Shown here one piece after another: positions 965-9,961 of a DNA stretch of 24,000 bases (its first letter is position 1; each line of letters starts with the position of its first letter). A model generated the notes under the pieces. The model had not been told where the DNA came from and did not search any database. It saw only the letters and a program-made list of their open reading frames with translations. Source of the DNA: Pseudomonadota bacterium (GTDB lineage: Bacteria; Pseudomonadota; Gammaproteobacteria; Pseudomonadales; Porticoccaceae); assembly GCA_034717695.1 (NCBI GenBank), contig JAYELS010000017.1, positions 1 through 24,000 of the forward strand, in the 5' to 3' direction. The position numbers were made by a program, and so were the translations under genes.

Positions 965-2382
965 GCGCCTGGCCCCGCTTCGCCGTGGTGGGCCACCCCA
1001 ACCAGGGCAAGTCGAGCCTGGTGGCCACCCTGGTGCAGGACGACCACATCGCCATCTCGCCGGTGAGCGGCACCACCCGGGAGGCCCACCGCTACCAGCT
1101 GCTGCTGGACGATTCCGTGCTCTACGAACTGGTGGACACCCCCGGCTTCCAGCGCCCCCGCCAGGTGCTGGCCTGGTGCGCGGCGCGGGGCGGCGATGCC
1201 GCCGCGCGGCCGGCGGCGCTGGCGGCATTCGTCGCCGCCCACCAGGACGATCCCCGCTTCGGCGACGATTGCGCCCTGCTGGCCCCCATCCTCGACGGCG
1301 CGGGTATCGTCTATGTGGTGGACACCGACCAGCCCTTCGACGCCCAGTTCGAGGCGGAGCTGACCCTGCTGTCCTGGACCGCCCAGCCGCGCCTGGCCCT
1401 TCTCAACCCCCACGGCGGCGCCCCCGGCCGCCACGACGGCCAGTGGCGTGCCGCCTTGCAGCAGTTCTTTTCCCTGGTGCGCCCCTTCAACCCCCTGCTG
1501 GCGCCCTTCGAGCAGCACCTGGGGCTGCTCAGGGGCATGGCGGAGATCCACGATCCCTGGCGCGACGGCCTGCTGCGGGGTGTCGAGGCCCTGGCCCGGC
1601 AGCGGGAATCCCGCCACCGGGAGGCCGCCACCGTCCTGGTGGATTACCTCCAGGACCTGATGGGCTTTCATCTGCGGCTGCCGGTGGTCGGCACCCGGGA
1701 CGCCATTCGAGCCCAGGGCCTCGCCCGCTACAACCGCGAGTTGCAGCGCCGCGAGGACGGCTTGCGGCGCGCCCTGGCGGCCCTCTACGGCCACCGCCAG
1801 CTCGACTGGCAGAGCGAATGGCAGGCCCTGGCGGCGGAAGATCTCACCGACGCCCGGGAGTGGCGCGCCTGGGGCCTGTCCCGGGCGCGGCTGGCGTCCC
1901 TCGGCGCCGGCGCCGGGGCCATGACGGGGCTCGCCGTGGATGCCGCCACCGGCGGCGCCTCCCTGCTGATGGGCGCCCTGGTGGGGGGCGCCCTGGGGGG
2001 GCTCGCCGGCGGCTTCGCCGGGCGCGATCCCCTCAGTTTCGAGCTGGTCTCCCGGGTGCCCGGCTACGAGCAGTGGCAGCTTGGCCCCGTCAGCAACCTC
2101 GAATTCGCCACCGCCCTCGCCGGCCGCGCCCTGCGGGCCTGGTACCAGCTGCGGCTGCGCAACCACGCCCGCCGCGACGCCCTGCTGCTCGCCCCCCAGG
2201 ACCTGTCCCACTGGCTCGATGGCCTCGACCGCCGGCAGCAGGTGCAGCTGCTGTTCTGGCTGCGCAAGCTGCTCAAGGGCCCCCTCGACGACAGGGAACA
2301 GGGCCAGCTGCAAACCCTGCTGCTGGCCCTGGGGGAGGCGATGGAGTCGGCCGCGGCGGGGGGCGGGACGGGTCAGCCCTGA
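961..2382 (+). CDS. P-loop GTPase with DUF3482-like C-terminal region and glycine-zipper membrane segment
   Basis: Starts MSAWPRFAVVGHPNQGKSSLV (Walker A/G1 GxxxxGKS) and has G3 DTPGF. The C-terminal half contains a Gly/Ala-rich hydrophobic stretch, GAGAGAMTGLAVDAATGGASLLMGALVGGALGGLAGGFAG. Its start is coupled to the upstream gene by an ATGA overlap. The listed 763-aa ORF from 91 is an out-of-context N-terminal extension. Confidence 0.85.
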   Translation: MSAWPRFAVVGHPNQGKSSLVATLVQDDHIAISPVSGTTREAHRYQLLLDDSVLYELVDTPGFQRPRQVLAWCAARGGDAAARPAALAAFVAAHQDDPRFGDDCALLAPILDGAGIVYVVDTDQPFDAQFEAELTLLSWTAQPRLALLNPHGGAPGRHDGQWRAALQQFFSLVRPFNPLLAPFEQHLGLLRGMAEIHDPWRDGLLRGVEALARQRESRHREAATVLVDYLQDLMGFHLRLPVVGTRDAIRAQGLARYNRELQRREDGLRRALAALYGHRQLDWQSEWQALAAEDLTDAREWRAWGLSRARLASLGAGAGAMTGLAVDAATGGASLLMGALVGGALGGLAGGFAGRDPLSFELVSRVPGYEQWQLGPVSNLEFATALAGRALRAWYQLRLRNHARRDALLLAPQDLSHWLDGLDRRQQVQLLFWLRKLLKGPLDDREQGQLQTLLLALGEAMESAAAGGGTGQP

Positions 2383-3209
2383 GCCCGCACCCAGCGCAGC
2401 AGATCCGCGCCATCCATGGCCGGAGCGATATGGCGCCCTTGGGCCAGATCGCAGCCAATTTCCCTGAGAAAACCAAGGGTTGCGGCGTCCTCCACGCCCT
2501 CGGCGGTGGTCCGTACGCCGAGATTGCGGCCGAGTTCCACCAGCGAACCCAGGGCGGCCCGGGAGCCGGGGGACGCCAGCGCGGTCCCGACCAGGGCGGG
2601 GTCCACCTTGACCTCGGAAAAGGGCATACGGACCAGCAGTGCCAGCGACGAATATCCGGCGCCGAAATGATCTAGGGAGAGCTGGAAGCCCTTCATCCGC
2701 AGTCGGATCATGGCGTCCATGGACAGGAGGGGGTTTTCCATGGCGTGGCTCTCGGCAATTTCGAGCACCAGCCGTTCCTGGGGCAAGCCGGCGTTGGCGC
2801 ACCAGCTGGCGAGGTTGCTGGTGAAGTCAACGTTGTGGAGGTTGCCGGTGGATATGGTCGCCGCCAGCAAGGGAGCCGACAGCCCTCTTTGATCAGGGCG
2901 GGTGACAAAGTGCCGGCAAAACCACGGAATTGCCTGGGCCAGTACCTCGCCGTTCACCCGCTCTGCGAAGCCCCCGGGTTGCCAGGCAGGCAGTGGTTCA
3001 CCCTGTTCGATGGTGCCGGCATCGGGGTGCGGCCCGACAACCCTCGCCCCCACCGCCACGGCGGCCAGAGCACCGGTGGCGCAGTCCACCCGAGGCTGGA
3101 ATGTCATTGTCAAAGGCGGCTTCCAGGTCGGCGACCCACCCCCCGCCGGGGCGGTGTCGGTGGTCAATACCGGGCTATCTTGTCTGTCGATCTCGGTGGC
3201 TTTCACCAT
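2373..3209 (-). CDS. stand-alone EAL-domain protein with degenerate catalytic motifs (likely c-di-GMP binding, not hydrolysing)
   Basis: EAL-fold landmarks are present: FQPRVD, LEIAES, DHFGAGYSS, VKVD, AEGVED, AQG. I prefer the start at ATG 3209 (MVKATEI), which has GGAGAG 7 nt upstream. The ORF-track start at 3224 is an alternative. The 3' end overlaps the convergent GTPase gene by 10 bp. Confidence 0.85.
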   Translation of the reverse strand: MVKATEIDRQDSPVLTTDTAPAGGGSPTWKPPLTMTFQPRVDCATGALAAVAVGARVVGPHPDAGTIEQGEPLPAWQPGGFAERVNGEVLAQAIPWFCRHFVTRPDQRGLSAPLLAATISTGNLHNVDFTSNLASWCANAGLPQERLVLEIAESHAMENPLLSMDAMIRLRMKGFQLSLDHFGAGYSSLALLVRMPFSEVKVDPALVGTALASPGSRAALGSLVELGRNLGVRTTAEGVEDAATLGFLREIGCDLAQGRHIAPAMDGADLLRWVRAQG

Positions 3210-8222: not shown

Positions 8223-8395
8223 GCGCTGTACAAGTCCGGACCGGGTAGGTCTGCAATGGTTTTCTGGATGAGCGGTATGAAAGTCAGCCTCGGCGGTATG
8301 CTGTGTAACCGATTGTATTAGCAGGAATATCCGCTAGTTTTGTAGGGTTTTGTCGGGAGCGGCGCCCCTGGCGCGGTGGCGCCGGTGCCACTAGG

Positions 8396-9961
8396 ATGGA
8401 GGCCTGTCGCGCCAGCGGGCACCTTTCCCAGAGCATCCCCATCACCCACGTCGAGGCCCATCCCGTGCAACCTCATCCCGACCAGAGTCCGGCCACCCCG
8501 AGCTACGGGGCGGCATCGCCCGCCCCGGCCCCCGCCGCCATCCAGCCCTGGGGGTGCCTGCTCTGTCTGGACGGGGGCTTGAACCGGGTGTTGCAGGTCA
8601 GCGCCAATCTCGCCGAGGTGCTGGGGGTGGCGGTGGAGGAGGCCCTCGCCCGCTCGCCGGCGCAGCTGCTGGGGGCGCGGCGGGTGGATCGCCTGCGGGC
8701 CGCCCTCGCGGCGGACGGCGGGGTGCCCGATATGCTGCGGCGGCGCCGGGATGGTCGCCCGGTGCGCTTCCAGCTCAGGGCCTACGCCAGTGACGGTTGC
8801 GTGGTGGTGGAAATCGAACCCCTGGCGGCCAATCGCCGCGACCTGCGCCTCGCCGGCACCGGCCAGTGGCTGGGGCGGCTCGCCCGGGCGGAGTCGGAAG
8901 AGGCCCTGCTGGAGCTGCTGAGTGGCGGGGTGCGGGCGCTGACCGGCCACGAGCGGGTGATGGTCCAGCGCCTTGAGCCCGATGGCGCGGCGACGGTGCT
9001 GGCCGAGGCCCTGGCGCCCGGGGTGGCGGGGGCCACTGGCCAGCGCCTCCCCCCAGGGCAGGTTCCCCCCGGGGCCGCGAGCTGCCACCCGGGCAATCCG
9101 CTGCACTGTATCCCCGACCTGTTCGCCCCGCCGGTGGCCCTGGTGCCGCCACAGGGCCCGGGCGGCGCCGCGCCCCCCGACCTGTCCCCCGGGGTGTTGC
9201 GGGCCCCCTCGCCGGAACACCGGCGGCACCTGCGGGAGCTGGGGGTGGGCGCGATCCTGTCCCTCCCCCTCCAGGATGGCGGCGCCCCCTGGGGGTTGGT
9301 GACCTGCCACGGCTCCCGGCCCCTGCCGCTGTCCCCCGGGTGTCGGGATGCCGCCCTCGCCCTGGCGGGAATGGCGAGCCAGCGGCTGTTCCTGCTGCGG
9401 GCGCGGGCCGAGGCCGCCGTTCCGCGCCCGGCGCGGGATCGCCGCCCGCGGGCCGAGCTGGCCCATGTCGACGCCCTCACCCACAGCTGGAATCGCTACC
9501 GCATCGAGCTCGAACTGGACCGGGAACTGAGCGCCGCCGAGCGCTATGGCCGGCCCTGCGCGCTGCTGCTGTTCGATCTCGACCACCTCAAGACCCTCAA
9601 CGACGCCCACGGCGAGGCCGCCGGCGACCGCCTGCTCTGCATCCTGGCCGCCACCGTGGCCGGCAACCTCCGCCCCACCGACCACCTGGGGCGCTGGGAC
9701 GGCGGCGCCTTCGCCGTGGTGGCGGGCAACACGTCTCGCGGCGGCGCCCTCGGCCTTGCGGAGCGCCTGCGGACGGCGGTGGCCGCCCTCCGCCTGGATG
9801 GCCTCGGGCCGGTCACCATCAGCATCGGGGTGGCGGAGCGGATCCCCGGGGACAGCGCCAAATCCCTGGTGGCGCGGGCGGGCCGGGCCCTGCGCCGCGC
9901 CAAGGCCGGCGGGCGCAACCGCGCGGTGGCGGATGCCCTTGGGTCCGTTACCGGTGGCTGA
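8396..9961 (+). CDS. phytochrome-like PAS2-GAF sensor fused to a degenerate GGDEF domain (RxxD I-site retained)
   Basis: It has IQPWGCLLCLD...VLQVSANLAEVLG (cf. phytochrome IQPHGxLL...vSeN). GAF hallmarks are TGHERVMVQRLEPDG, LRAPSPEHRRHLRELGVGA and PWGLVTCHG. The C-terminal GGDEF fold shows DALTHSWNR, FDLDHLKTLNDAHGEAAGD and RPTDHLGRWDGGAFAVV. It is divergent from the pilus operon. Confidence 0.85.
   Translation: MEACRASGHLSQSIPITHVEAHPVQPHPDQSPATPSYGAASPAPAPAAIQPWGCLLCLDGGLNRVLQVSANLAEVLGVAVEEALARSPAQLLGARRVDRLRAALAADGGVPDMLRRRRDGRPVRFQLRAYASDGCVVVEIEPLAANRRDLRLAGTGQWLGRLARAESEEALLELLSGGVRALTGHERVMVQRLEPDGAATVLAEALAPGVAGATGQRLPPGQVPPGAASCHPGNPLHCIPDLFAPPVALVPPQGPGGAAPPDLSPGVLRAPSPEHRRHLRELGVGAILSLPLQDGGAPWGLVTCHGSRPLPLSPGCRDAALALAGMASQRLFLLRARAEAAVPRPARDRRPRAELAHVDALTHSWNRYRIELELDRELSAAERYGRPCALLLFDLDHLKTLNDAHGEAAGDRLLCILAATVAGNLRPTDHLGRWDGGAFAVVAGNTSRGGALGLAERLRTAVAALRLDGLGPVTISIGVAERIPGDSAKSLVARAGRALRRAKAGGRNRAVADALGSVTGG

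Follow-up and report, generated by a model that had tools for sequence, protein, structure and literature searches.

The 24,000-nucleotide (nt) stretch of contig JAYELS010000017.1 analyzed here (hereafter the window; overall GC content approximately 70%) carries a four-gene pilus operon preceded by an RNA aptamer of the bis-(3'-5')-cyclic dimeric guanosine monophosphate (c-di-GMP)-I clan. The region from 3411 to 8158 was deduced to be, with good probability, a compact archaic pilus cassette whose conserved c-di-GMP input is its own leader riboswitch, the flanking EAL and GGDEF genes being separate additions. In the mechanism proposed, cytoplasmic c-di-GMP would bind the aptamer, binding would alter the fold of the 172-nt expression platform, and this fold would set the amount of full-length or translatable pilin-chaperone-usher-pilin mRNA. 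The AmiC-type AMIN domain of the usher would act in the periplasm to tether or localize the usher on peptidoglycan. The catalytically dead EAL gene and the degenerate phytochrome-GGDEF gene would have been added separately, at the variable junction between the DUF3482 and DUF6279 genes.

The major evidence for the riboswitch was the Rfam match in the leader and its conservation. The segment matched RF03167 over the full model (1-80) with 62.3 bits, above its gathering score of 59 (E 1e-12), and a lower-scoring, overlapping match of the same clan (CL00126) was also above gathering and was suppressed. The GEMM-I-like leader core described in an earlier note on this DNA is, by this score, a genuine c-di-GMP-I-clan aptamer. 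In an alignment of nine aptamers from orthologous leaders, compensatory changes were found in 11 of the 22 pairs of the consensus fold, the motifs GGCAAA and GACGC-A-AAG were kept in all nine, and the equivalents of G20 and A47 of the Vc2 aptamer look canonical. A scan of 21 other loci with related ushers placed an aptamer ahead of this operon in 10 of the 22 distinct loci, the window counted; wherever the usher shares 49% identity or more with that of the window, the aptamer is present. The loci that pair an aptamer with an orthologous operon span several families; L001 (Halomonas alkalisoli) and L003 (a Moraxellaceae metagenome-assembled genome [MAG]) have the aptamer ahead of the first pilin gene, and it is also present in L020, L021, L022, L023 (Acinetobacter schindleri), L027, and L028. 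Taken together, these data support a link from c-di-GMP to the pilus at the RNA level. A second c-di-GMP-I aptamer was observed in L021 (1137-1224, minus strand, 43.6 bits), on the opposite strand and approximately 2.3 kb upstream of the pilus riboswitch.

The ligand was considered separately. The position directly after GACGC is A in all aligned aptamers and G in the RF03167 consensus, and for this reason we read these sequences as ordinary c-di-GMP-I aptamers whose 5' segment resembles RF03167. The candidate assignment of the RF03167 match to the "GGC" specificity variant was rejected on the same grounds. The ligand is most likely to be c-di-GMP.

The pilin-chaperone-usher-pilin order reported in the earlier note is real, as Pfam identified SCPU, PapD_N, Usher with PapC_C, and SCPU domains in the four products. 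With genes for two SCPU pilins, a PapD-like chaperone, and an usher arranged as one operon, the system is assigned on sequence to the archaic (sigma, Csu/CupE-type) chaperone-usher class, since the pilins are of the SCPU type and the best solved relatives are the archaic pilin CupE1 for the major pilin (8CIO, E 2e-8) and CsuC for the chaperone (E 8e-13). Related loci show the same gene order as far as their contigs cover the operon, and the second pilin occupies the same position in all those whose contig extends past the usher (L005 stops at the usher). A near-identical copy of the locus, with the same gene order and an EAL protein 99% identical, was found on contig CAZOEY010000008.1 of MAG GCA_964578955.1, and a usher cluster representative ("MAG: Porticoccaceae bacterium") is 94% identical to the window usher. 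The public gene call for the usher starts at 6592 and gives 918 aa rather than the 940 aa adopted here. The features are collected in Table 1.

Table 1. Features of the pilus locus and of the c-di-GMP-related genes in the window
Feature	Position	Strand	Basis or remark
Aptamer	8070..8158	(-)	c-di-GMP-I clan, Rfam
Expression platform, 172 nt, aptamer to pilin start codon	7898..8069	(-)	
Major SCPU-type pilin, 177 aa	7364..7897	(-)	Pfam SCPU, E 1e-32; best solved relative 8CIO
PapD-like periplasmic chaperone, 248 aa	6621..7367	(-)	Pfam PapD_N, E 8e-17; best solved relative CsuC
Outer-membrane usher, 940 aa	3836..6658	(-)	Pfam Usher and PapC_C
N-terminal AMIN domain of the usher, residues ~33-154	6197..6562	(-)	NCBIfam AmiC model; profile match to 4BIN
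Second SCPU pilin, 142 aa	3411..3839	(-)	Pfam SCPU, E 4e-30
Stand-alone degenerate EAL protein, 283 aa	2373..3224	(-)	Pfam EAL, 147 bits
Degenerate phytochrome-like PAS_2-GAF-GGDEF protein, 521 aa	8396..9961	(+), divergent	Pfam domains
PAS-PAS-GGDEF-EAL protein	20514-22649		All catalytic motifs present

Expression platform and direction of switching

The expression platform contains a hairpin, ACAGCC-CUUGC-GGCUGU, that lies a few nucleotides downstream of helix P1 of the aptamer and is followed by a U/C-rich tract. Homologous leaders and platforms are 128 to 218 nt long. The platform of the window also holds a direct repeat of 31 nt (7983..8013, minus strand) that copies the 3' half of the aptamer (8067-8097) with 90% identity at a spacing of 84. 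This duplicated 3' half was found again in L020 (6457-6471 and 6548-6562) and is missing from the remaining eight leaders with a riboswitch. The second copy may be an alternative partner for the 5' half of the aptamer or what is left of a tandem duplication. A terminator scan of the minus strand of the window found none. In the L023 leader, a promoter-like site (1554-1582) and the aptamer (1632-1720) are followed by a 13-bp terminator-like hairpin (1733-1761), and a short competing hairpin begins right after P1.

The direction of the switch was approached by analogy. It is somewhat more probable that c-di-GMP turns the operon ON than that it turns it OFF, because other adhesins are induced by this messenger: the Csu pili of A. 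baumannii are raised by c-di-GMP (PMC10721868), and the type IV pili of Clostridioides difficile are switched on through a c-di-GMP-II riboswitch upstream of pilA1 (PMC6366702).

The segment between the divergent GGDEF gene and the aptamer (approximately 8181-8226, minus strand) contains an imperfect 13-bp inverted repeat, CTCTACAGC(T)CCCC...GGGG(C)GGCTGTAGAG, which may serve as an operator or form a hairpin in the 5' leader.

The AMIN domain of the usher

The AMIN domain that the earlier note described on the usher held up in two comparisons and lies in the N-terminal extension. Residues 33-154 matched residues 27-149 of the NCBIfam AmiC model (E 5e-7), and a profile built from the extension and its homologues matched the AMIN domain of Escherichia coli AmiC (4BIN, residues 19-138) with E 5e-26; the same profile also matched Myxococcus xanthus PilQ. 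The window usher on its own falls just under the Pfam AMIN (PF11741) cut-off, with 18.3-19.3 against 20.5 bits, and homologous copies pass it in L002 (40.9 bits) and L007 (31.4 bits).

The domain is common among related ushers. Of the 120 nearest usher cluster representatives, 48 carry AMIN according to a local hidden Markov model, 35 with one copy and 13 with two in tandem, and the precomputed Pfam annotation already marks 15 of these. A word-indexed search with the usher N terminus returned a single fragment only. Tandem copies are exemplified by L002 (9791-10900) and L007 (9845-10950), from organisms such as Frateuria terrea and Fulvimonas yonginensis. The presence of AMIN is correlated with that of the riboswitch, yet the two are separable: L001 combines the riboswitch with an AMIN-less usher, and the riboswitch is missing from L002 and L007, whose ushers have two AMIN copies each. 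From the analogy with AmiC and PilQ, the domain most likely tethers or positions the usher on peptidoglycan.

The flanking EAL and GGDEF proteins

The relation of the two flanking genes to the cassette was assessed from the gene neighborhood. Contig L026 carries the window backbone at 77-88% amino-acid identity, in the order peroxidase, hydrolase, DUF2868, DUF3482, PAS_2-GAF-PHY-GGDEF gene, DUF6279, and NAD-binding gene. Nothing lies between its DUF3482 and GGDEF genes (6291-6415), and riboswitch, pilus, and EAL are all absent there. Fifteen further backbone relatives from a metagenome scan likewise have neither pilus nor EAL after DUF3482. In three of them, L031, L032, and L043, DUF6279 is close to DUF3482, with other cargo in between and no GGDEF gene; the cargo was identified in two cases, as an alpha/beta hydrolase in L031 (11357-12196) and as PepSY_TM together with a TonB receptor in L032 (11383-14617). 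The DUF3482-DUF6279 junction (approximately 2373-9961 in the window), where the DUF3482 gene encodes a GTPase, appears to be a variable insertion site whose cargo differs among relatives. The simplest history would be stepwise accretion, in which the phytochrome-GGDEF gene came first and the riboswitch-pilus-EAL block next. The PAS_2-GAF-GGDEF gene is a resident of the backbone, outside the cassette.

The cassette itself is accompanied by hints of travel on mobile elements or of a history of horizontal transfer. It is adjoined in L028 (5888-9021) by an integrase, HTH regulators, and Sipho_Gp157, and in L001 (6157-7416) by phage-type ERF and YqaJ genes. A search of the block edges gave no convincing mobile-element termini or border repeats.

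The stand-alone EAL protein was compared with the active phosphodiesterase 3S83 and with 11 further EAL proteins. It reads AVGAR for EALxR, AATIS for xxNxS, and DHFG for DDFG, so that the E of EAL, the N, and the second D of DDFG, kept by all 11 comparison proteins, are missing, while the R, ExxE, K, E, and Q are retained. The complete catalytic and metal-binding set of an active EAL phosphodiesterase is therefore not present, in agreement with the earlier note, which had described a stand-alone EAL protein without key catalytic residues. The best NCBIfam model was RR_EAL_PvrR, matched by its EAL half only with 123 bits against an equivalog cut-off of 580, and the REC domain of PvrR/RocR-type REC-EAL proteins is absent from the window protein. 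With the LapD model the protein scored 43-47 bits, where the cut-off is 1020. Leaving aside the 99% identical copy, the best matches of the EAL protein are REC-EAL response regulators at no more than 46% identity, and the homologue search found no orthologue in any other organism. Among its closest homologues, P0003 and P0005 are paired with hybrid kinases and have no pili nearby. Orthology with the REC-EAL proteins that flank pilus operons was considered and rejected, as these are 32-35% identical to it against 46% for REC-EAL proteins not linked to pili. The GC content at third codon positions is 0.77 for the EAL gene and 0.87-0.95 for all eleven other window genes checked, the pilus genes included, which suggests a different origin or relaxed selection. 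From these sequence comparisons, the protein is taken to be a REC-less, catalytically dead orphan of the PvrR-like family and a lineage-specific neighbor of the operon.

A different interpretation of the same data is that the EAL protein alone belongs to the cassette, as a reduced PvrR/RocR-type regulator that now serves as a c-di-GMP-binding adaptor or sponge modulating the signal seen by the riboswitch. It would account for the position of the gene on the same strand, 186 nt downstream of the second pilin and inside the block missing from L026, as well as for the family match to PvrR. REC-EAL genes with hybrid kinases flank the operon in L003, L020, and L022, the L003 protein falling in the clade of the window EAL, and PvrR and RocR control the cup fimbriae of Pseudomonas aeruginosa (PMC2696094, PMC3842833). 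This interpretation was nevertheless judged unlikely: the closer kinship is with REC-EAL proteins away from pili, the codon usage is unlike that of the operon, the 186-nt spacer is AT-rich with a U7 run that suggests a separate transcription unit, and the protein is unique to one organism.

The divergent GGDEF protein belongs to a family of approximately 690-aa PAS_2-GAF-PHY-GGDEF proteins with the motif GGEEF. Pfam and a family alignment bore out the earlier description of a phytochrome-like sensor with DGGAF and an intact RxxD. The window protein reads GRW-DGGAF where the family has GRW-GGEEF, so that the GG(D/E)EF of an active diguanylate cyclase is missing, and a PelD/PopA-like I-site, RPTD, is kept in its sequence five residues upstream of the GGDEF position (RPTD-HLGRW-DGGAF). 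As a bacteriophytochrome module it is incomplete; PAS_2 and GAF are present, PHY is deleted, DIP is changed to QVP, and there is no Cys at the N-terminal position used by the family. Its closest homologue, P0242 on contig L026 (59% identical), is also degenerate (GEGVF) and also retains RxxD. This orthologous pair is 56-68% identical against 77-88% for the neighboring genes, which suggests relaxed constraint.

These features raise the question of whether both flanking proteins are decaying remnants without c-di-GMP function, leaving the pilus under the riboswitch alone. The EAL protein has lost its REC domain and three catalytic residues kept by 11 of 11 comparison proteins, and the GGDEF protein has lost PHY, the chromophore motifs, and GGEEF, has a degenerate closest relative, and evolves faster than its neighbors. 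Both open reading frames (ORFs) are, however, full-length and free of frameshifts, RxxD is retained in both the window protein and P0242, and the EAL domain still scores 147 bits. Complete decay is accordingly considered a tentative explanation, with less than an even chance of being correct, and the two proteins may or may not still bind c-di-GMP.

The central proposal of the earlier note was that the riboswitch, the dead EAL, and the degenerate GGDEF serve one pilus as a set of three dedicated c-di-GMP receptors, which act on it together through RNA and through protein. In its favor, the three elements do lie next to one another, the catalytic motifs were lost while the R, ExxE, K, E, and Q of the EAL and the RxxD of the GGDEF protein were kept, and GGDEF and EAL genes are overrepresented around operons of this kind. 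Receptors of the degenerate EAL or GGDEF type are also established elsewhere, in FimX, LapD, PelD, and PopA. The conserved seven-gene neighborhood expected under this proposal was not obtained, as a PAS_2-GAF-GGDEF or EAL-only neighbor occurs in 0 of 21 other pilus loci and the block is missing from L026 and the fifteen other backbone relatives. The GGDEF orthologue holds its place in L026 without a pilus block and diverges faster than the genes around it, and the EAL is an orphan. No comparative evidence links either protein to the pilus.

Topology argues in the same direction. Inspection by eye showed no signal peptide or membrane segment in either flanking protein, the Pfam results contained no DNA-binding domain, and both proteins appear from their sequences to be cytoplasmic. 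Chaperone-usher assembly is periplasmic and outer-membrane and is not known to involve a cytoplasmic motor or component, which leaves a cytoplasmic receptor no obvious target. Direct contact of the EAL or GGDEF protein with usher, chaperone, or pilins is therefore topologically unlikely. Of the joint reading of c-di-GMP by RNA and protein, the RNA half was upheld by the aptamer, its covariation, and its recurrence, while the protein half failed on synteny and is disfavored by topology, and the three-receptor system as a whole is very improbable.

Several observations weigh against the favored explanation and were set against the evidence above. Four of the ten aptamers score best with RF03167, the GGC-variant model, rather than with RF01051, which leaves some chance of an altered ligand specificity. 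Minimum-free-energy folding of the leader, and a comparison of free with aptamer-sequestered folding in seven leaders, gave no consistent ligand-dependent change in the accessibility of the Shine-Dalgarno sequence or in terminator formation. The terminator-like hairpin behind the L023 aptamer could equally mean OFF logic. GGDEF and EAL genes occur near these operons at 2.0 per 100 kb against 0.52 in control loci, an enrichment of about fourfold, although the numbers are small, and they lie directly downstream on the same strand in L004 (GAF-GAF-GGDEF-EAL, 22 nt) and L023 (CHASE-PAS-GGDEF, 44 nt). Because of this enrichment and these two cases, the position of the window EAL may not be wholly accidental. 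Finally, both flanking genes are intact ORFs, and the kept I-site suggests that some selection has acted. A PAS-GGDEF-EAL-REC gene is also found near the operon in L002 and L007, and the recurring neighbors suggest local turnover enzymes that feed the riboswitch rather than a fixed set of receptors.

A broader reading would join several of these elements. In it the cassette is a self-contained mobile module, the AMIN usher is pinned to peptidoglycan so that pili are spatially restricted (for example, to poles or septa), and the dead PvrR-like EAL has been recruited as a c-di-GMP receptor or sponge that tunes the same organelle. We regard this as quite improbable in its entirety; if true, the recruited EAL would amount to a combined RNA and protein reading of the messenger, and the riboswitch would provide control without host regulators.

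Elsewhere in the window, the PAS-PAS-GGDEF-EAL protein that the earlier note had singled out as enzymatically intact-looking keeps GGDEF, an REHD I-site, EALVR, N, ExxE, DDFG, K, E, and Q. A 353-aa ORF at 22778-23839 on the minus strand gave no Pfam match at E <=1e-3.

Comparison with known systems

Both c-di-GMP riboswitches and archaic chaperone-usher pili are well known. The open-access papers searched yielded no description of a riboswitch-controlled chaperone-usher operon, of a cassette pairing a riboswitch with an AMIN usher, or of the terms "AMIN domain" and "usher" in combination; the nearest was a passing mention, in a review, of "putative fimbrial genes" in Aeromonas that are preceded by a c-di-GMP riboswitch (PMC6366702). 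In the Csu and Cup systems the effect of c-di-GMP is known, with a molecular link that is indirect or unknown, and a leader riboswitch would represent a direct, regulator-free route from c-di-GMP to chaperone-usher pili. The cassette also occurs in culturable Acinetobacter schindleri and is hence open to testing, the L023 leader being the best candidate there. The AMIN-bearing ushers form an undescribed and common usher subfamily, and they pose the question whether peptidoglycan serves to anchor or position some chaperone-usher pili in the manner of PilQ secretins. The locus also calls for caution, since adjoining degenerate c-di-GMP proteins can arise by stepwise accretion at a variable site and adjacency alone does not make a system.

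The window operon resembles Csu of Acinetobacter baumannii and CupE of P. aeruginosa in its SCPU pilins, CsuC-like chaperone, and usher. It differs from them in having only four genes, in the absence of a CsuE-like two-domain tip adhesin, and in the AMIN domain of its usher. Control is by two-component or protein regulators in Csu and CupE and would be by the riboswitch in the window cassette. Compared with AmiC (4BIN) and PilQ, the AMIN domain gives a whole-domain profile match and is likewise N-terminal, periplasmic, and located on an envelope machine; its host protein is, unlike theirs, a fimbrial usher, on which peptidoglycan binding is putative.

The flanking proteins share with FimX and LapD (EAL) and with PelD and PopA (GGDEF I-site) the loss of catalytic motifs and the retention of some ligand-contact residues, including RxxD. 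They differ in that they do not belong to these families by sequence, have no partner domains, and show no conserved linkage, and their c-di-GMP binding is putative. The EAL protein may also be compared with the regulators encoded beside the chaperone-usher clusters of P. aeruginosa, PvrSR/RcsCB with cupD and RocS1/RocR with cup, which include EAL proteins of the same family (PMC2696094, PMC3842833). Unlike PvrR and RocR, it lacks a REC domain, a partner kinase, and the catalytic E, N, and D residues. It is rather the GGDEF and EAL neighbors recurring at the related loci that resemble PvrSR-cupD and RocR-cup (PMC2696094, PMC3842833).

Among c-di-GMP-I (GEMM-I) riboswitches (RF01051, RF03167), such as Vc2 of Vibrio cholerae, the window element has the same aptamer architecture with covariation-backed helices and lies, like known cases, in the 5' leader of a surface-structure operon. 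It is set apart from them by the duplication of the aptamer 3' half in the platform, shared with L020, and by its downstream genes, which form an archaic chaperone-usher operon. A parallel in arrangement is Cdi-2-4 upstream of pilA1 in C. difficile, which also joins a c-di-GMP riboswitch to a pilin operon (PMC6366702). Cdi-2-4 is of class II, governs type IV pili, and was experimentally shown to be an ON switch, while the window element is of class I, precedes a chaperone-usher pilus, and is a putative ON switch.

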